Position numbers and translations under genes: made by a program. Below the pieces are notes generated by a model. It did not search any database. It was not told the DNA's origin and was given only the letters and a program-made list of their open reading frames with translations. A DNA stretch of 64,000 nt from an uncultured Erysipelotrichaceae bacterium (GTDB lineage Bacteria; Bacillota_I; Bacilli_A; Erysipelotrichales; Erysipelotrichaceae), in the NCBI GenBank assembly GCA_946537255.1, contig CAMNFS010000001.1:31713-95712 (forward strand), in the 5' to 3' direction. Below are positions 39,091 to 51,328 of this stretch, piece by piece. Within the stretch, counting starts at the first letter, position 1. Each line of letters starts with the position of its first letter.

Positions 39091-39158
39091 ATCTGTTTTC
39101 CCTTTCACGAAGTCAGAAATCAACCCAATCATGTAATAACCATATATAATAAACTTGT

Positions 39159-41333
39159 ATGAAATTTTTCTCGGGGAAGATCAGTAAATTTTCTAAAAAA
39201 TTCAGGAATATCGCGTTTTTTATCGTGATCGCTCTGTGCATCAATCTGATCTGCAACCGGATTGCGGTTTTTCTGAATCTGCCCATCTATCTGGACGCGG
39301 TCGGAACCATTCTTATTTCGGTTGTAAGCGGCCCTGTGCCGGGCGTGATTGTCGGTTTTCTGACCAATTTCATCAATGCCGTGAATGATATCAATAATGC
39401 CTATTACGGCGTCATCAATGTCATCATTGCGATTACAGCCTGGTACTATTCCACCATCAACTGCTACAGAACTCTGCCGAAGGCGATTCTGACCGCCCTG
39501 CCAATGGCGCTCATCGCCGGCACCTACAGTGCCTTTCTGACATTCTGTCTCAACGGCTTCGGGTATGCGGATGAAATCTCCACAGCGGCAGGCACTGGTT
39601 TTTTTGCGCAGAATCACCTTCTGGATTTCTCCAGTTCCCTGTTTCATGAGCTGACTGTGGATCTTGGCGACAAGCTGATCAGCGTCATTCTGGTTTTCTT
39701 CCTGATGAAGCTGATCTCCGCCCGCTGGAAGGAAGAACTGAAGTTCTACGACTGGAAACAGAAGCCGCTCTCTGAGCAGGAAATGAAGGACGCGGAACAA
39801 ACCATCCGGGCCGGCAGTTCCCTTCGCTCCAAGGTTGTTCATCTGATCATTATTGCGATGCTGTTTGTCGCCGCCATCACCATCGGCATCTCCTACCGTC
39901 TGTATGAGCGGGCAAGTTATTCGGAACATATTACGCTCGGCAAAGGTGCCGCAACGCTGATCTCCACCATTGTGGATGGAGACCGGGTGGATGAATTCAT
40001 ACAGTTCGGGGAATACGCCCCCGGATACCGTTATACCAAGCAGCAGCTGGAAAGCATCCGGACGACCAATGACAATATTCTCTATGTCTATGTATACAAG
40101 ATCGATCCGGATGGATGTCATGTCGTATTCGATCTCGATACGCCCGACACACCCGGCGGAAAACCCGGTGATCTTGTGGAGTTTGATGAGGCATTTGTTC
40201 CCTATCTCAACGATCTGTTCGAAGGAAAGGAAATCGACCCGATTGAGTCCAACGAATCCTTCGGATGGCTGCTCACGGTATACAAGCCGATCCGCAATTC
40301 CCAGGGAAAGACAACCGCCTACGCATGTATTGATATTTCGATGGATGAGGTTACCGCAAATGAAGTCAGTTTCTTCGCGAAGGTTCTCTCCCTGTTCCTT
40401 GGCTTCTTCATCATGATCATCACCATCGGGATTACTCTTTCGGAATTCCATCTGATTCTGCCATTGAACACCATGGCAACTTCCGCGCACTCCTTCGCCT
40501 ACAATAATGAAGAAGAGCGTAAGAAAACCGTCAATAACTTCCGCAGTCTGGATATCAGCACCGAGGATGAAATCCAGAACCTGTATACCGCCTTTTCCCT
40601 GACGATTGAAGATACGGTCCGTTATATCGCCAATGTTGAGCGTACAACCAGTGAACTCAACAGGATGCAGAACGGGCTCATCATGGTGCTGGCGGACATG
40701 GTGGAAAGCCGGGATGAGTGTACCGGTGATCATGTCAGAAAGACCGCCCAGTACTGCCGGATCATCCTTGATCAGCTCAAGAAAAACGGCTGGTATACGG
40801 ATCAGCTCTCGGACGCGTTTATCGAGGACGTCGTGAATTCCGCTCCGCTCCACGATGTCGGAAAAATCAAGGTCAGCGATACCATCCTCAACAAGCCGGG
40901 CAAGCTCACGGATGAAGAGTTTGAAATCATGAAAACACATACCACTGCCGGCAAGGAAATCATCCGGCAGGCCATGGCAATGGTCAGCACGGACAGCGGT
41001 TATCTCAGGGAAGCGATGAATCTTGCGGCCTATCATCATGAGAAATGGAACGGCAAGGGATATCCAAACGGTCTTTCCGGTGAAGAGATTCCTCTTTCCG
41101 CAAGAGTCATGGCGGTCGCGGATGTATTCGATGCCCTCGTTTCCGAACGCAGCTACAAGAAACCATTCAGCTTCGAGCAGGCATGTGACATTATCAAAAA
41201 GGATGCCGGAACGCATTTCGATCCGAAGATTGCGGAAGCGTTCCTGCAGGTCAAGGACAAAGCCCGCAGGATTGCCGAGGCAAATCTTGGAACCTCCCTG
41301 CCAAGTGAATATCAGATCGACGAAAAAGCCTGA
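39159..41333 (+). CDS. HD-GYP domain c-di-GMP phosphodiesterase with polytopic membrane and extracytoplasmic sensor modules
   Basis: The C-terminal HD-GYP motifs are present (HDVGK ... HHEKWNGKGYPNGL). About 6 N-terminal TM helices are followed by a roughly 190-aa loop domain and a further TM. Length is 724 aa. Confidence 0.9.
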   Translation: MKFFSGKISKFSKKFRNIAFFIVIALCINLICNRIAVFLNLPIYLDAVGTILISVVSGPVPGVIVGFLTNFINAVNDINNAYYGVINVIIAITAWYYSTINCYRTLPKAILTALPMALIAGTYSAFLTFCLNGFGYADEISTAAGTGFFAQNHLLDFSSSLFHELTVDLGDKLISVILVFFLMKLISARWKEELKFYDWKQKPLSEQEMKDAEQTIRAGSSLRSKVVHLIIIAMLFVAAITIGISYRLYERASYSEHITLGKGAATLISTIVDGDRVDEFIQFGEYAPGYRYTKQQLESIRTTNDNILYVYVYKIDPDGCHVVFDLDTPDTPGGKPGDLVEFDEAFVPYLNDLFEGKEIDPIESNESFGWLLTVYKPIRNSQGKTTAYACIDISMDEVTANEVSFFAKVLSLFLGFFIMIITIGITLSEFHLILPLNTMATSAHSFAYNNEEERKKTVNNFRSLDISTEDEIQNLYTAFSLTIEDTVRYIANVERTTSELNRMQNGLIMVLADMVESRDECTGDHVRKTAQYCRIILDQLKKNGWYTDQLSDAFIEDVVNSAPLHDVGKIKVSDTILNKPGKLTDEEFEIMKTHTTAGKEIIRQAMAMVSTDSGYLREAMNLAAYHHEKWNGKGYPNGLSGEEIPLSARVMAVADVFDALVSERSYKKPFSFEQACDIIKKDAGTHFDPKIAEAFLQVKDKARRIAEANLGTSLPSEYQIDEKA

Positions 41334-42177: not shown

Positions 42178-43144
42178 TCAAAGGAATACCTCAAGCTGTT
42201 TCATTGCCATTGTGGCATACGCCCCCATCGGCAGAAAGAAGGAAACGGTCAGCACGGCTTTTCCTGGATGGAACACATCTTCCTCACAGCCAAGAAAATT
42301 GATGTTCGTCGTTACCAGAAGCTTGCGCGGTACCTCCTGTTCAAGCGTATGAACCCGGAATGAACCGATCCTTTCCTCCGGAAAATCCTCCTGCAGAAGC
42401 GCTGCCATAGTCTTTTTTTCCTTCATCTTCTATAGGTATGATGGGCCCGTTCTGTTGCAGAATATTCCCGAGCCGCTGGTTGAAGTCTGCGGCGTAAAGC
42501 GCGGAATCATAGAATCCCCTTACCCGGGCATCAATCTGATCGAAAAACTTCTCATAATCTCCGTCAAACGGAAGAACTGCTTCTCTGGTTCCTGATTCCA
42601 GAAGATATTCATACGCCTTCCGATAGTCTTTATGGAAAAGTGCTTCACCGATCAGATGAGTCTGTTTCTTGTATCCGGATTTGCCAACCCGCTGCTTGTC
42701 AAAGTAGTTCGGGAAAACAAGCGTGTAGATCTGCTTATGGAGTCAGCTTTCCGCCTTTGCCCGATCCAACCCCCGCAGACGCAGCCGGAAGACATTCCCT
42801 TCCAGCCGGGCCGGCTTCAAAGGCTCCTTGATATAGCCAAGAAATGTCAGATGGATGAAACGGTCCGCTTCGGTGTGTTCCAAATTGAACGCGTCGATCC
42901 GCTTCAGATTGTCCCGGTACTGTACCGGGATACTGACCTTCTGGGAGGTGATGCCGTCACTGTCCTTCAGTCCGGCCCTTCCATCTGGCTGATACCAAAC
43001 CAGGATTCCGCTGTCTTCATGGCATCGAAGGTAGAGAATCCTTTCTTTTCAAGTCCCAGAAGGATAATCCTCTGCCGTGTGTTCTGTTACAAGCACCTCC
43101 TGAACAATGAAATCCTCCGGAATGTACTTAATGATGATTCTGAA
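42178..43144 (-). pseudogene. truD: tRNA pseudouridine(13) synthase TruD, disrupted
   Basis: Minus-strand translation across three frames gives IIKYIPEDFIVQEVL, ILLGLEKKGFSTFDAMKTAESWFGISQMEG, AGLKDSDGITSQKVSI, VFPNYFDKQRVG and SFFLPMGAYATMAMKQL. There is no ATG, at least 3 frameshifts, and an in-frame TGA at 42743-42745. Only an 82-aa tail ORF survives. Confidence 0.75.
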
Positions 43145-46100
43145 TTACCCTTCCTGATCGGACCTGTTTCTCTCTGCAAGAGAGGCAATGGTAGCATACA
43201 GTTTATCCGGCTCAACCGGTTTGGAAAGATGGGCGTTCATACCCGCCTCCAGGGATCTTTCCACATCCTCATCAAACACGTTGGCGGTCATGGCAATAAT
43301 CGGAATGGTCTTTGCGTCAGGCCGTTCCAGAGCCCGGATTGCCCTGGTAGCAGAAAGACCGTCCATCACCGGCATCCTGACATCCATGAGAATGACGTTA
43401 TAATAACCGGCCGGCTTTTTGGAAAACATCTGTACGGCAATCTGTCCGTTCTCCGCGTGTTCCGTTTCAATATCTTCAAGCGAAAGCAGATCTTCCAGAA
43501 TTTCCGCGTTCTGTTCGACATCCTCTGCCATCAGCACTCTGAGTCCGGCAAGATCCGTTCCGCTTTCCTTTGTATCCGCGGTGTCGGTCTCGATGATTCC
43601 CTTCTTCTTCTGCAGGACATGCTGAATCTCCCGCATCAGGGTATCAGTAAACAGCGGCTTCGCCAGAATACCGTCAACCCCTTCCATTTTCGCTTCGTTC
43701 TCAATGACATTCCAGCTGTATCCCGTCAGCATGATCACAGCCGGATCATTCCCGGCGCAGGCGCGGATGGCTCTTGTCACATCCAGTCCATCCTTTTCCG
43801 GCATCCTGTAATCGGTGAGGATCAGCTGATATGGATGATCCGTATCCGCGGCGGCCTTGATCCTTTCAACTGCCCGATTCGGATTCTGTTCGGTATCCGC
43901 TTCAATGCCAAGGCTCTTCAGCACGACCTGAGCGTGCTCTCGCGCAATCTCATCATCATCGATGACAATCGCCCGAAGATTCTCCGGCAGTACGATACCG
44001 TTTTCTGCCTGGTAGGTACGGTCACTTTCCTTGAGGGCAACCGTCACAGTGAAGGTCGTTCCGACTCCTTTTTCACTTTCTACGGAAATAGTCCCGTTCA
44101 TCATTTCCACAAAGTTCTTTGTGATCGCCATGCCAAGACCGCTTCCTCCATACTTGTTGGTAGAAGTCGCGTCCTCCTGGGAAAAGGCCTCGAAAATCTT
44201 CGGAATAAATTCCTTGTCCATGCCGATTCCTGTATCCGCCATCCGAAACCGCATGGTTCCCAATCCATCCTGACTGCTGATCTGCTCCACGGTAAGCGTG
44301 ACCAGTCCCGGTGCCTCGGTGAATTTGACGGAGTTGCCCAGGATATTGATCAGCACCTGCTTCAGCTTCATGTCATCTCCGCAGTAGTAGTCACAGACAT
44401 GGCCGATGATATTGCATTCATAGTGCAGTCCCTTATCCTGACACTGCCCGTTGATCATGATATTGATCTGATCCAGAAACTCCCGGAAGGAGAATTCCTC
44501 ATTCTTCAGAACCATCCGTCCGGATTCAATCCGGCTCATATCCAGAATGTCATTGATCAAGCCAAGCAGATGCTTCGCGCTGGCTCCGATCTTTTCCAGA
44601 TGTTCCCTTGTGCGCGGCGACAGATCCGGATCTCTCAGGGCTATGTTGTCCAGGCCGATGATCGCGTTCATCGGGGTTCTGATCTCATGGCTCATATTGG
44701 AAAGAAAGCTGGTCTTGGCCCGGCTGCTCTCTTCCGCCAGAGCCTTTTCAATCTCGGTCTGCTTTTCCCGCTTCTGCATCTGATTGTAGATATCAAACAG
44801 CAGTGCCAGAGCTATGACAACCAGGGCGGTCTGAATCAGTACACTGATCCCCAGCGTACGATTGATTTCACTCAGAACATCCCGGAGATACATGACCGCA
44901 GGTCTTGTCGCGGTACTTGTCACATCAATTCCTGCCGCTTCCAGCTGGCCGGTATAGTATTCCTGAATCGGGGTTACAGAACTTTCCACAGCCGACTCCG
45001 CCGTCTGACGCATCCAGACACTGGAGGTAAAGATAATCAGGCCAAGCAGAACCACCCAGGCAACAATCGAATGCCCAAGCCGCCTCTGCTTGTCGTTATG
45101 CATGATATGGCGGAACAGGAAAAGTCCGAGAATTCCCCACGCCGCAAGAATCAGATAGGATTCCGTGGAAAGCGTTTTGACGGAAATGATATTCGGAACC
45201 AGAAATTCCAGAGCGAAAAGAATCGAGAAAAACTGGCCGGCAAATCCGCAGACAGAGGCGGTGCTGTTCTTTTCCTTTCTGGCAAGACGATAGGTGCAGG
45301 CACTGGCAAACGCGTACGCAATCGTCGCTCCGACCGTGGTGACATCTACAATCCAGCTGATCGCGGTGCGTCCGAAAAAAGGAAGAATCACAGAAATGCC
45401 GAGAATCAGAAAGATTGCCTTGCGGGGAACAAAATGCTCATCCAGTTCACCGATCCACTCCGGCAGCATCCCATCCATGGACAGTGTCGCAAGCAGCCGG
45501 CTCAGGGCAATGTAATTGCCGATAAGACCGGTGAAAATCGCGCAGAGCGCAATCACTCCAAGCAGGATCGGGCCAGCGCTTCCCATAGCGGTCTGTACCG
45601 CGTAGAAGGTCGGAACAGATGCTGTACCGCTGTACTGATCCAGATGAAAGATATAATCCATCCACGATCCGCAGCCCTCCGGGAAAGCGGTCGCCGCCAG
45701 TAGAGAAAGCAGAATATAGGCAATCGCCCCGGTGATTACCGCGGCAGAAAGAATTCCGAATGATTTCTTCAGGGGAAAAGCCGCTTCACTGGAAGAATGC
45801 GAAATGGATTCAAATCCGACAAAGGCCCAGGGAGCCAGGGCAAAAACCGTAAAGATCCCTTCCCCGGCGGAATGTCCCGGTACAAAGGCCGGCTGAAATC
45901 CATTGACAGCACCGGGATTTCCAAGCGCGCCGACAAAGCAGACAATGATGCCGAAGAAAAGAAAAACCGCCATGATCACCTGAATCCGTTCAGAGATCTT
46001 TCGGTGAAGGCAGAACAGCGCAGAAACAACCAGGGAAACAACAGCCAGCAGGATTTCTCCCATGTATACATGAAAACCGGCAATCACATAATGAAAGCCA

Positions 46101-46492
46101 AACTGAAAGACATTGCCGAGCACCGCCCTGGCTATGAGCGGAAGCGCTGTTGCATTCGCCCAGATAATCGCGATATATGTCAGAGTCAGAAACCACGCAA
46201 TCAGGAATCCATGGTCATATCCGAACACATTCTTGGTATAGGTATAGGTTCCTCCCCCGTCCTGAAAGCGGTTCATCAGGAAATGAAAATTGACCGCCAG
46301 CACCAGCATGACCAGTGCTCCCAGAGTAATTCCGATCAGCGTTCCGATCGGCCCGGCAACCGGCAGGAAGGTCGTTCCGGGCATCACAAAAGATCCCCAT
46401 CCGACACTGCACCCAAAGGCAAGCGCCCATGCGCCCGGTACAGTTAAATAGGCAAACTCCCGACGAAGTCCCGGCCCGTTATTCTGACTCAT
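43145..46492 (-). CDS. Hybrid sensor histidine kinase with N-terminal APC-superfamily amino-acid-permease domain and two receiver domains
   Basis: About 470 N-terminal aa have APC hallmarks (GSFVMPG...[38 protein letters not shown]) and at least 12 TM helices. The kinase core has the H-box [19 protein letters not shown] and GGSGLGM. There are two REC domains ([11 protein letters not shown]; [11 protein letters not shown]). SD GGGGAGAAAG lies before ATG 46492. Confidence 0.9.
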
Positions 46493-46526
46493 AAGAAAAC
46501 TTTCTCCCCTGACATGCCTTCCGTAC

Positions 46527-46895
46527 TTATGCTCCTTCGTACTGACGGATTCCATCCACTGCTTTCTGATACAGTTTCTCTATTTCCGCAAGCTTCTCAC
46601 GGACCATTTCATCACTCATGGAGCGGGCATTGCCAGGCCGGTATTCCTCAGCAATTTCCGAAGCCGCATCGGCGATTTTCACAAGACCCAGATTGGCACA
46701 GACTCCCTTCGCTGCATGAGCGGTTTCAAACAGCTGTGTGGGATCCATGGTTTTTCCCGCTTCCAGAAGAGAGGCAACCACCCCGTTTTTCACAAGTTTG
46801 CGGATATGCTTGTCAATCAGTTTTTCCACCATGAGCACATGGATGGCCCGTTCATAATCGCCGTCGATCAGCTGATACAGTTCCTGAAGTGTCAT
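46527..46895 (-). CDS. Stand-alone Hpt (histidine phosphotransfer) protein
   Basis: 122 aa, helical, with the Hpt motif [13 protein letters not shown]. Its ATG overlaps the upstream stop codon (ATGA). Confidence 0.85.
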
Positions 46896-48598
46896 ATGGT
46901 TCTTTCCTTTCTCGCAATCCCGATTTCCTTTTCAATCAGTTCCTCCATCTGTTCCGGAGGCACCGGTTTTGAAAAGTAAAACCCCTGCACAATATCACAG
47001 CCGCTGTCCTTCAGCAGCGTCAGCTGGCCCTTCGTCTCAACGCCTTCCGCAACTACCTTCAGACTCAGATTGGAGGCAATGTCGAGAATCAGTTTCACCA
47101 GTCGGAAACTCGTCTGGCTTGACTCAATATGCCGGACAAACTTCATATCCATTTTAAGCACATCCAAGGGCATTTCGGAAAGCATGTTCAGGGAAGAATA
47201 TCCGGATCCGAAATCATCCATTTCAATATCAAAACCAAGATCACGGAGTTTTCCAAGCACCTCCATGACATGTTTCGCGTTTTCCGTATAGGCACTTTCC
47301 GTCAGTTCCAGTTTCAGCTCCCGGTATTCGAGCTGATTCTCCTTGATCAAAAGATCCAGACGTTCCACAAGATTCTTGTCATAGAAATCCGCCCGGGAAA
47401 GGTTGATCGAGACCGGAAGGGAAAACTGAAACTTCTTTTTCCACGCCGCGATCTGGCGGGAAGCGCATTCCCATACATAGTGATCAACGACCGAAATCAG
47501 ACCGTTCCCTTCAAACAGCGGAATGAACTGACCGGGTGAAATCATGCCGAGTTCCGGATGTTTCCAGCGGATCAGAGCCTCCGCGCTGGAAAGTCTCGGA
47601 GGATCGCACTGAATGTCATATTTGGGCTGATAGTATACCGTAAACTGCTTTTCATCCACCGCGGCCCGAAGATCATTGAGGAGTCTTTGATTCAGCAGTT
47701 CCCGCCGCCGCAGCTCTTCATCATAAATCATCAGCGGATTCTGAAAATTGCCCCGCACCAGGTTGCAGGCGGCTTTGGCCCTGTCAAACATCACGACCGG
47801 CTCCACATCCTCGCCTGCAGGGTTGACACCCATGCGGAGATGCACGCTGACATCCGGTGAAAACGCGTTGATTTCCTCCTGAAACTGGTGCAGCAGCGCC
47901 TGATAGTCTTCCTGCGGCTGACAGTAGATTTCAAAGCGGTCCGCTTCCGCCCGGCAGGCAATTCCCTTCTGACTTTTCAGGAAATCCTGAATGATGGATC
48001 CAAGCATCCGCAGCACCCGGTCTCCGAATTCCCGGCCATGCAGGGCATTGACGGAATGAAACTGCTCCACATTCAGAACCAGCGCATCCATGCCCTTATC
48101 CGAACGGTAGCGGTAAAGCTGTTCCACATATTCGAAAAAGAAACTGCGGGTAAGAAGTCCCGTAAGCCGGTCATGCTCAGCAGCGTTGATCAGCTGTCTG
48201 CCTTCACTCAGTTCAATGATTCTTGCGACCCGGGCAAGAATGACTTCATGCATGTCAAACGGCTTGGTAATGAAATCCGCCGCGCCCATCTGCAGCGCCT
48301 TGAGCTCCGCATTCTTTTCAGCGGTAAGAACGATAAACGGAATCTGCCGCATCTGCTCATCCTTTTTCGCTCTTTCCAGAACTTCAAAGCCGTTGAGCTT
48401 CGGCATGATAAGATCGAGAAGAACAATCGAAAGATCATTCAGGCGTGCTTCAATCACCTGCATCGCCTCTTCGCCATCACACGCGTAAAGCACATCATAA
48501 TCATCTTCCAGGATAATACCGAGTGCATCACGGTTGATTTCCTGATCATCCACGACCAGTACCGTTCTGTGACGGGGAATGAATTTACTGTCTATCAT
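46892..48598 (-). CDS. Response regulator REC-GGDEF(degenerate)-EAL, predicted c-di-GMP phosphodiesterase
   Basis: The REC domain is present (VLVVDDQ...LLDLIMP...TKP). The GGDEF site reads RAEADRF. The EAL motifs are intact (EALIRW, ELTES, DDFGSGYSSL, LKMDMKFV, AEGVET, QGFYFSKP). I prefer the start MIDSKF at 48598. Confidence 0.9.
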   Translation of the reverse strand: MIDSKFIPRHRTVLVVDDQEINRDALGIILEDDYDVLYACDGEEAMQVIEARLNDLSIVLLDLIMPKLNGFEVLERAKKDEQMRQIPFIVLTAEKNAELKALQMGAADFITKPFDMHEVILARVARIIELSEGRQLINAAEHDRLTGLLTRSFFFEYVEQLYRYRSDKGMDALVLNVEQFHSVNALHGREFGDRVLRMLGSIIQDFLKSQKGIACRAEADRFEIYCQPQEDYQALLHQFQEEINAFSPDVSVHLRMGVNPAGEDVEPVVMFDRAKAACNLVRGNFQNPLMIYDEELRRRELLNQRLLNDLRAAVDEKQFTVYYQPKYDIQCDPPRLSSAEALIRWKHPELGMISPGQFIPLFEGNGLISVVDHYVWECASRQIAAWKKKFQFSLPVSINLSRADFYDKNLVERLDLLIKENQLEYRELKLELTESAYTENAKHVMEVLGKLRDLGFDIEMDDFGSGYSSLNMLSEMPLDVLKMDMKFVRHIESSQTSFRLVKLILDIASNLSLKVVAEGVETKGQLTLLKDSGCDIVQGFYFSKPVPPEQMEELIEKEIGIARKERTI

Positions 48599-50234: not shown

Positions 50235-51143
50235 TTACTTCTTATAGGATCCAATACTGTTTTTCCCGCTTTTCTTGACGGAATAGAGCGCTTGGTCCGC
50301 CTTTTCCACAAGGCCGGAGATATCCAGAACATCATTGACCTCATGGATATCGGCAAAACCAATGCTTACCGTGATATCACAGCCGAGCTTTTTTCCTTCC
50401 GCTCCGATTCTTCCAGCCAGATGCTTTAAGCGGTTGTACACCCGCTGTCTTGATCCGGGAAGAATCCCAACAAATTCATCTCCGCCCCAGCGGCAGACCT
50501 GATGTTCATACCGCACCGCCGCAACCAGGCACTCCGCTACCATCTGAAGGACCTGATCGCCGGTATTATGTCCCTTCTCATCATTGATGGCCTTGAAGTT
50601 ATCCACATCCAGAATAAAGAGAGAAGCCTCCTGATAGTCCCGCTTCATATAGTGCTGATGCCACCAGAGGATAAAACTTTCCCGGTTATAGAGGCCGGTG
50701 AGGCGGTCACGGCTTGCCTGCTGAAGCTCACGCCACAGTCTTGTCCGCATCAAAGAGTCGGCATATACCAGCATGACACAGTCCGCTTCATCCTCTCCGG
50801 CGGCCGGAATCATCAGTTCATCTCCATCCCTGAGACTTACCTTCTCATCAGGCTGAAGAAACCGCCCTTCAAACTGAATGCCGTTGGTTGTCGAAGACGC
50901 GGTGAAAACGGTTTTTTTCTCATCTGTGTCAAAGCATCCGTGATTTCTGGATACGAAGCGGTTGACAACGGTAATCTGTGGATTATCCGCACTTCCGGCC
51001 CGGCCGAAAACCTGATGCCCCTTCAATGGAAATTCCGTGATGTTTCTTCCGCTGCATATGAAAAGCACCGGATCACACGCTTCATACAGTTTCCGGGCAT
51101 TTTCATCCCACTTCACATTCAGAACGGTTGTGGTTTCCTCCAT
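50235..51143 (-). CDS. FHA-domain diguanylate cyclase (FHA-GGDEF)
   Basis: It has an FHA core (VFGRAGSADNPQITVVNRFVSRNHGCF...NGIQFEG) and an active-looking GGDEF (RWGGDEFVGI, DVDNFKAINDEKGH). SD AAGGAG lies 6 nt before ATG 51143. Confidence 0.85.
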   Translation of the reverse strand: MEETTTVLNVKWDENARKLYEACDPVLFICSGRNITEFPLKGHQVFGRAGSADNPQITVVNRFVSRNHGCFDTDEKKTVFTASSTTNGIQFEGRFLQPDEKVSLRDGDELMIPAAGEDEADCVMLVYADSLMRTRLWRELQQASRDRLTGLYNRESFILWWHQHYMKRDYQEASLFILDVDNFKAINDEKGHNTGDQVLQMVAECLVAAVRYEHQVCRWGGDEFVGILPGSRQRVYNRLKHLAGRIGAEGKKLGCDITVSIGFADIHEVNDVLDISGLVEKADQALYSVKKSGKNSIGSYKK

Positions 51144-51328
51144 CAAAGACTCCTTATTCCAGTGAATGCCAGACCTTTGTGATTCTCTGCATTCCTTTTG
51201 TTTTCTTTTTAGGATTTGAATTATATCATCCCACCACATGATTTTCCGCCAAGAATTTGTATTATTGCGGAAAAGAGTACTTTTCTTTTCGCTTCTGCTG
51301 TTCTTTCCCGCAGAAGCTGACCGGCTTC

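Follow-up and report, generated by a model that had tools for sequence, protein, structure and literature searches.

An APC-type permease core fused to a hybrid histidine kinase in rumen and gut bacteria: a putative transporter-derived receptor with a proposed link to cyclic di-GMP

Characterised fusions between a bacterial transporter fold and a signalling enzyme are few, comprising CbrA/CrbS and the Amt sensors, and the way in which a transport fold signals to its kinase is a live question. In CbrA/CrbS of Pseudomonas and Vibrio, a complete LeuT-fold secondary transporter of the SLC5/SSS family, with 13 transmembrane (TM) helices, is placed N-terminal to a histidine kinase acting in nutrient-linked signalling; CbrA was termed a "rare" transporter-kinase fusion in a 2026 preprint, and TCDB lists an MFS-sensor kinase family. 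Ks-Amt5 (Amt-histidine kinase) and Sd-Amt1 (Amt-HAMP-GGDEF) are transporter folds turned receptors, at which one input module is combined with a kinase or with a diguanylate cyclase and a link to cyclic di-GMP (c-di-GMP) exists. In DcuS-DctA and BceS-BceAB, a transporter also gives a kinase its sensory input, yet the partners are separate proteins of other families. Here we describe a covalent fusion of an APC-type permease core to a hybrid histidine kinase (hereafter APC-kinase), encoded in a 64,000-nucleotide stretch of contig CAMNFS010000001.1 (the window), a metagenome assembly from an uncultured Erysipelotrichaceae bacterium of the gut or rumen. With somewhat better than even confidence, we read it as a 14-TM sensor kinase at which a transporter-derived ligand receptor of the APC/SLC7 fold drives a His-Asp-His-Asp phosphorelay to a c-di-GMP phosphodiesterase. 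What is new is the APC fold as input, transporter-derived sensors such as CbrA and the Amt sensors being already known. Full-text literature searches and a check of census papers, with subscription-only papers and TCDB/InterPro entries outside their scope, returned no description of APC-fused kinases or cyclases, in agreement with the original prediction for this locus, which knew of no characterised APC-fused kinase.

The original prediction was made from the DNA letters and proposed a single open reading frame (ORF) of 1115 amino acids (aa) joining an APC-type core to a hybrid kinase with two receivers. This architecture holds, and all peptide strings quoted for it are found in the translation. 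The ORF runs on the minus strand from its first ATG over 43145..46555 (1136 aa); the ATG at 46492, which the original prediction had used, appears nevertheless to be the more credible start, because an AGGGGAG ribosome-binding site precedes it, it lies 32 nucleotides (nt) after the stop codon of the neighbouring Hpt gene and it fits the length of the homologues (~1100-1120 aa). All families suggested for checking were matched above the curated gathering scores of Pfam. AA_permease_2 (PF13520) covers residues 19-433 (E 5e-22, 78.8 bits against a cut-off of 27) and, when the N-terminal part is searched alone, residues 19-454 and positions 4-421 of the 427 in the profile; PF00324 (AA_permease) scores 60.8 bits against a cut-off of 24.6. 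The N-terminal part thus belongs to a transporter family rather than to another one, the match covering the 12-TM core. HisKA was found at residues 592-658 (E 1e-18), followed by HATPase_c (E 3e-27) and two Response_reg domains (E 3.5e-40). H602, GNSVKF, DTGIGM, IFEAFSQ, GGSGLGM, D894 and D1037, which characterise a hybrid kinase of the HisKA class, are kept in all 12 orthologues compared, in which His602 and the phospho-residues of both receivers are invariant.

The best structural match of the cytoplasmic half is ShkA of Caulobacter (DHp-CA-REC1-REC2; Foldseek E 4e-21), which has the same domain order and, unlike the APC-kinase, no membrane input; for the HATPase_c region, Foldseek matched ShkA, GacS and HK853. 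REC1 of ShkA is a pseudo-receiver without the acidic pair, at which c-di-GMP competes for binding with a DDR motif of the linker. In contrast, REC1 of the APC-kinase has D845-D846-D847 together with D894, T923 and K945, and no DDR motif was found in its inter-receiver linker. A ShkA-like feedback of c-di-GMP via REC1 was rejected on these two grounds.

In the membrane half, the original prediction had counted three helices past a 12-helix core; hydropathy and the AlphaFold2 model give two. There are 14 hydrophobic segments and not 15, of which TM1-12 form the permease core (~13-466) and TM13 (~474-495) and TM14 (~545-567) follow it, so that the total of 14 leaves the kinase in the cytoplasm, as the topology requires. 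Lys/Arg-rich stretches beside the N-terminus, in the TM12-TM13 loop and past TM14 fit the same arrangement, with both termini inside. An acidic segment of ~50 residues between TM13 and TM14 faces outward and is modelled as a helical hairpin. The model reaches a mean predicted local distance difference test (pLDDT) score of 81.3, and of ~85-93 within the core. In it, TM13 belongs to a helix at 477-520, which a short turn separates from an unbroken helix at 530-619 that comprises the outer arm of the hairpin, TM14, the cytoplasmic linker and the first DHp helix. Between permease and kinase no HAMP, PAS or STAC domain was matched, and residues 465-591 gave no significant Pfam match. This differs from CbrA, which couples via cytoplasmic STAC and PAS domains whereas here TM14 leads straight into DHp; in addition, the 12+2 helices of an APC/SLC7-like protein replace the 13 of CbrA. 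As the transporter part matches AA_permease and not SSF, and no STAC was found, the protein stands outside the SLC5/STAC family. The Amt sensors are built on a trimeric channel-like fold unrelated to APC, with a HAMP coupler in Sd-Amt1 and ammonium as the ligand. The TM13-hairpin-TM14 connector is common to kinase-fused and GGDEF-fused relatives of the APC-kinase, and the hairpin is their least conserved segment (38% among orthologues and 17-19% in comparison with the other fusion types).

Far from being rare, the fusion is carried by hundreds of species from rumen and gut. A full-length search, a survey of the architecture of the kind advised in the original prediction, retrieved more than 120 protein clusters at 65-70% identity with the same four Pfam families and ~1100 aa, from independent ENA, NCBI, JGI and Logan assemblies. 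Counting one genome per species, at least 592 species-representative genomes have the same fusion. Most of these are rumen or gut metagenome-assembled genomes (MAGs) of Clostridia (Lachnospiraceae, Ruminococcaceae, Oscillospiraceae, Christensenellales), with further hosts in Erysipelotrichaceae, Coriobacteriaceae, Atopobiaceae and Anaerolineae (Flexilinea, Leptolinea), and the set includes the cultured isolates Ruminococcaceae bacterium FB2012, Ruminococcus albus AR67 and Eubacterium ruminantium FB3002. In databases these proteins are labelled simply "amino acid permease". The origin of the window in a metagenome assembly, and the existence of some relatives as split or decayed genes, could point to an assembly chimera or a frameshift joining separate permease and kinase genes. 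However, the reading frame is continuous, the junction from TM12 to TM14 is conserved across relatives, and the full-length architecture recurs in these independently assembled clusters and species genomes, isolates included; a chimeric assembly was rejected on this conservation, its probability being practically negligible.

Searching the PDB with the single permease sequence gave nothing at E up to 0.01, whereas a profile built from 17 relatives matched CAT1 (E 1e-17), CAT4 and GkApcT (residues 8-462), and then xCT, LAT1/2, y+LAT, BasC and AdiC. Foldseek with the membrane half of the model gave target template modelling scores (TM-scores) of 0.80 for AdiC (5j4n), 0.79 for GkApcT (6f34) and 0.76 for BasC. 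Judged by profile and predicted fold, the permease part is a genuine domain of the LeuT/APC fold, which is built as a 5+5 inverted repeat. It has in common with CAT1, CAT4, GkApcT, BcaP and AdiC the fold (TM-score ~0.8), the TM1 G-x-G and the TM6 (F/Y)xGF(D/E), at an identity of only ~16-18% to the CAT-type carriers and AdiC, which have neither the TM13-hairpin-TM14 connector nor the signalling domains. In TM1, G31-W32-G33 aligns with G42-T43-G44 of GkApcT, and its tryptophan is nearly invariant in the clade; TM6 reads P221-W-A-F-V-G-F-E228, where A223-F-V-G-F-E228 aligns with A232-Y-I-G-F-D237 of GkApcT and the motif is kept. Known APC transporters use these unwound motifs, G-x-G in TM1 and G-F-E in TM6, to hold the backbone of the amino acid, and their residues are invariant or nearly so in 27 fused relatives. 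F231 of GkApcT corresponds to W222, and its selectivity position M321 to N326.

Conservation was computed over the same 27 relatives, kinase-fused as well as GGDEF-fused. Columns conserved at 90% or more number 9/24 in TM1, 16/34 in TM3, 7/24 in TM6, 9/37 in TM8 and 14/31 in TM10, and they are scarce in TM4, TM5, TM7 and TM11. The conserved columns are hence located on the helices that line the substrate site, which argues for a pocket under selection and is at odds with a core that is a mere anchor. It could be supposed that the core serves only as a membrane anchor or dimerisation scaffold, and that the stimulus is sensed by TM13-hairpin-TM14, by the 3-TM companion kinase encoded in the same operon or by an input that reaches REC1 from the cytoplasm: with its two TM helices and small outer domain the connector is reminiscent of a classic kinase sensor, the companion looks like the same kinase minus its APC part, and REC1 is an extra receiver without an assigned role. 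Nonetheless, it is the hairpin that is least conserved and the pocket-lining helices that hold the invariants, proteins with unrelated outputs still share 50% identity in the core, and repeated recruitment to different outputs would not be expected of an anchor. We therefore regard a pure scaffold as very improbable.

The model places a small beta-hairpin (residues 134-143, window 46064-46093) in the loop that joins TM3 to TM4 on the outside. Y135 and G139 of this loop are invariant and Y143, G145 and E146 nearly so; the hairpin may be a lid or gate above the pocket.

As for the ligand, which the original prediction had suggested to be an amino acid or polyamine sensed by binding or flux, the pocket might accept something other than an amino acid or amine: another solute, an ion such as K+, or a rumen metabolite. 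KimA is a K+ transporter of the APC superfamily. The domain lies outside every defined amino-acid subfamily, its G-W-G motif is unusual, many polar residues of the core are invariant (D93, H94, N113, E146, N326, R375, D383), and one stand-alone relative adjoins TrkH/TrkA. Against this, the best neighbours in sequence and structure are all amino-acid carriers (CAT1/4, GkApcT, BcaP, xCT, LAT, BasC, AdiC), KimA was not among the profile matches at E up to 1, and the backbone-binding motifs of TM1 and TM6, typical of alpha-amino-acid recognition, are kept. A ligand of another kind is accordingly improbable, and KimA-like K+ sensing, raised by the TrkH/TrkA neighbour, was rejected for want of sequence support in the profile search.

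When the permease part was used as query, the same clade (45-67% identity) was found fused to several types of output: hybrid kinases, plain kinases (~795 aa), kinase-REC-Hpt, PAS-kinase-REC-REC, GGDEF domains (~740 aa, many clusters) and GGDEF-REC-GGDEF-EAL. The use of this clade as input for diguanylate cyclases was absent from the original prediction. With E up to 1e-30, an exhaustive search of representatives clustered at 50% identity gave 370 clusters, the top 150 of which are mostly 700-1440 aa long. Close "stand-alone" relatives were considered as free transporters and rejected, as they are mostly contig-end fragments or genes that end in or just after TM13, before kinase or GGDEF fragments. 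Genuine unfused 12-TM relatives with the G-W-G signature (470-505 aa) were met only at ~35-44% identity, and in 4 of the 6 contexts examined they directly adjoin kinase or GGDEF genes (Table 1), in split cassettes that resemble pairs such as DcuS-DctA and BceS-BceAB. Signalling neighbours even in the unfused state suggest that the G-W-G clade as a whole is dedicated to signalling. One stand-alone permease of G-W-G type (500 aa) from Lachnospiraceae (L089 7001-10575) is followed directly by the potassium-uptake genes TrkH/TrkA and by Ppx/Ppk, the only one of the six contexts with transport genes alongside; this neighbourhood faintly suggests that the ligand could be something other than an amino acid.

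These relatives also bear on the question of whether the APC domain still transports, in which case the protein would be a bifunctional transceptor and the transport cycle or flux, rather than binding, would set kinase activity, as proposed for CbrA. The core is indeed complete, with 12 helices and nearly the whole Pfam profile, the binding motifs of TM1 and TM6 are preserved, 12-TM relatives with the same signature stand alone, and CbrA combines transport and signalling in one protein. On the other hand, the proton-coupling pair of GkApcT (E115/K191) is missing, Thr, Val or Ala being found at E115 and no lysine in TM5; the clade goes with signalling genes even when unfused, and 5 of the 6 contexts have no transport or catabolic gene alongside, the exception being the TrkH/TrkA locus. 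Ks-Amt5, Sd-Amt1 and yeast Ssy1 (SPS sensor) are moreover described as receptors, Ssy1 as one for amino acids that descends from transporters of amino acids, like the one proposed here. Ssy1 belongs to the APC family and is not known to transport; it differs from the APC-kinase in being eukaryotic and in signalling through Ptr3 and proteolysis by Ssy5, with neither a fused kinase nor a two-helix connector. Taken together, we consider a transceptor a possible if unlikely reading. The receptor reading is not bound to this answer, as transport may or may not have been kept by the APC core.

The APC-kinase gene is the last of a one-strand cassette in the order companion kinase, regulator with receiver, degenerate GGDEF and EAL domains (REC-GGDEF-EAL regulator), Hpt protein and APC-kinase, in which companion kinase and regulator are 22 nt apart, regulator and Hpt overlap by 4 nt, and Hpt and APC-kinase are spaced by the 32 nt mentioned above. 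This context was absent from the original prediction, to which it adds a pointer to a c-di-GMP output. Its conservation was counted over 80 species-level genome loci: Hpt lies directly upstream of the APC-kinase in 74/78 loci, the regulator is present in 55/66 and the companion kinase in 45/58, and all three partners occur together in 44/58. The genes flanking the cassette vary between loci. A full set for a His-Asp-His-Asp phosphorelay is thereby encoded together, namely a hybrid kinase, an Hpt protein with the conserved histidine and a terminal receiver protein. The EAL domain of the regulator is full length (Pfam E 8e-66) with EAL, DDFGSGYSS, EGVE and QG intact, and reading of the sequence finds the motif set of EAL phosphodiesterases (EAL, N, ExxE, DDFG(T/S)GYSS, KxD, EGVE, QG). 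Its GGDEF domain, matched by Pfam at only 1-111 of 161 positions, has EADRF in place of the GG(D/E)EF of an active diguanylate cyclase. The companion kinase's receiver shares 69% identity with REC2 of the APC-kinase but only 34% with REC1, which suggests that both kinases pass phosphate to the same Hpt, with REC2 as the probable donor. The companion is 38% identical to residues 551-961 of the APC-kinase, TM14 included, and looks like the same kinase without its permease module. While the output of CbrA is the response regulator CbrB and carbon catabolite control, that of the APC-kinase would be an Hpt protein leading to a REC-EAL regulator.

Table 1. Features of the APC-kinase and its operon (coordinates in the window), followed by unfused relatives of the permease clade (coordinates in the named loci)
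Feature	Coordinates	Strand	Basis
APC-permease-fused hybrid histidine kinase gene, 1115 aa, stop codon included	43145..46492	-	ORF, translation, Pfam, homologues
12-TM APC/SLC7-fold core, residues 13-466	45095..46456	-	PF13520/PF00324, PDB profile matches, Foldseek, pLDDT ~85-93
Connector: TM13, outward helical hairpin (~50 residues), TM14; residues 474-567	44792..45073	-	Hydropathy, AlphaFold2
Cytoplasmic signalling helix and HisKA/DHp, residues 568-658, phospho-accepting His602	44519..44791	-	Pfam HisKA, predicted helix, invariant His602
HATPase_c catalytic domain, residues 705-820; N, G1 (DTGIGM), F and G2 (GGSGLGM) boxes	44033..44380	-	Pfam, motifs, Foldseek
Receiver 1, residues 838-960; D845/D846, D894, T923, K945	43613..43981	-	Pfam, conserved residues
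Receiver 2, residues 984-1102; E990/D991, D1037, T1069, K1091	43187..43543	-	Pfam, conserved residues
Stand-alone Hpt protein, 122 aa, motif AHAAKG	46527..46895	-	Pfam Hpt, 29 bits against a cut-off of 24.6
Response regulator REC-degenerate GGDEF-EAL, 568 aa from MIDSKF	46892..48598 (ORF extends to 48694)	-	Pfam, motifs
Companion hybrid kinase, 3 TM, HisKA, HATPase_c and REC, 495 aa	48621..50108	-	Pfam, sequence
Full split cassette REC-GGDEF-EAL / Hpt / APC / kinase-REC	L091 3309-8893		
GGDEF / APC as separate adjoining genes	L094 4587-7434		
APC / GGDEF in Desulfovibrio	L086 6957-10432		
Truncated cassette APC / HisKA fragment / EAL fragment / Hpt / HD-GYP	L084 6001-11123		

The observations extend to the domains with their catalytic residues, to topology and fold, and to the conservation of both the protein and its operon; from these we infer that a ligand binds, how its binding is coupled to the kinase, in which direction phosphate flows and that the output is c-di-GMP. 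A small extracellular solute, most probably an amino acid or an amine related to one, would bind the conserved central pocket of TM1, TM3, TM6 and TM8 and shift the conformational state of the permease core, which would reposition TM13 and TM14. TM14, continuous with DHp, would then change the autophosphorylation of His602 in a dimer. A receiver aspartate, probably D1037 of REC2, would take over the phosphoryl group and give it to the histidine of the neighbouring Hpt, from which it would end on the REC-GGDEF-EAL regulator, whose intact EAL domain would hydrolyse c-di-GMP. The second, small membrane hybrid kinase of the operon would feed the same Hpt.

Several points weigh against this mechanism. 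The permease domain falls far under the cut-off of every curated APC subfamily (NCBIfam), the best score being that of BcaP (63.7 bits against 690), with TIGR00909 at 56.9 against 556.8 and TIGR00905 at 48.1 against 409, and the substrate class of amino acid or amine is a family-level guess. A bulky invariant tryptophan takes the place of the Ser, Thr or Ala found in the TM1 motif of known transporters, and this residue could shape the pocket or else plug it. Moreover, the AlphaFold2 model is a monomer with a predicted TM-score (pTM) of 0.57, and the phosphate flow is drawn only from gene order. In 11/66 loci the EAL regulator is not upstream, and some lineages may thus have another output. 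Finally, promoter and terminator scans gave counts no higher than in shuffled sequence, which leaves the ends of the operon undefined.

At ~59-67% identity, the cassette is also present, besides Bacillota, in MAGs labelled Coriobacteriaceae/Atopobiaceae (Actinomycetota) and Flexilinea/Leptolinea (Chloroflexota), the loci of these two phyla being L013, L014, L030, L041, L045, L052, L054 and L075. Its presence in several phyla suggests either lateral spread within the rumen or errors of MAG binning. An FHA-GGDEF gene (50235-51239, minus strand) is found 126 nt upstream of the companion kinase; it stands beside the cassette in none of the 80 genome loci and is probably a local addition. On the plus strand, 39159-41333 encodes a membrane protein of 724 aa, in which several TM helices at the N-terminus are combined with ~170 aa of outer domain and, at the C-terminus, with an HD_5 domain that contains HDVGK and HHEKWNGKGYP; it is a candidate c-di-GMP phosphodiesterase of HD-GYP type by its motifs; HD_5 genes also adjoin relatives of the cassette at L043, L084 and L094. 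In one related genome (L002 2170-4994), GGDEF and TIR_2-domain proteins are encoded upstream of the cassette, with one unannotated 388-aa gene between. Two long antisense ORFs, one of 1023 aa (42632-45703, plus strand) over the APC-kinase and one of 695 aa (39129-41216, minus strand) over the HD-GYP gene, the latter without a Pfam match, are probably non-coding by-products of codon bias.

Perhaps the permease clade has a wider role, which we put forward as a tentative idea, held with rather less than even confidence. The G-W-G APC clade would be a dedicated prokaryotic receptor module, maybe non-transporting, and a bacterial counterpart of yeast Ssy1, at which the state of the LeuT fold is coupled via TM13-hairpin-TM14, without HAMP, PAS or STAC domains, to interchangeable outputs such as histidine kinases and diguanylate cyclases. 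A nutrient would thereby set the level of c-di-GMP, and hence attachment and biofilm formation, in many rumen and gut anaerobes, and the cassette may have spread laterally between phyla. With the APC/SLC7 fold, a third transporter fold is added to those found in such fusions, and its entry by a single helix into a kinase or cyclase is well suited to structural and mechanistic work, for which the cultured hosts Ruminococcus albus AR67, Eubacterium ruminantium FB3002 and Ruminococcaceae FB2012 give experimental access. The family extends over hundreds of species, mostly fibre-degrading Clostridia of the rumen, and appears to be wired to c-di-GMP, which governs attachment and biofilm. The identity of the ligand could reveal a nutrient cue that controls the colonisation of surfaces in the rumen.

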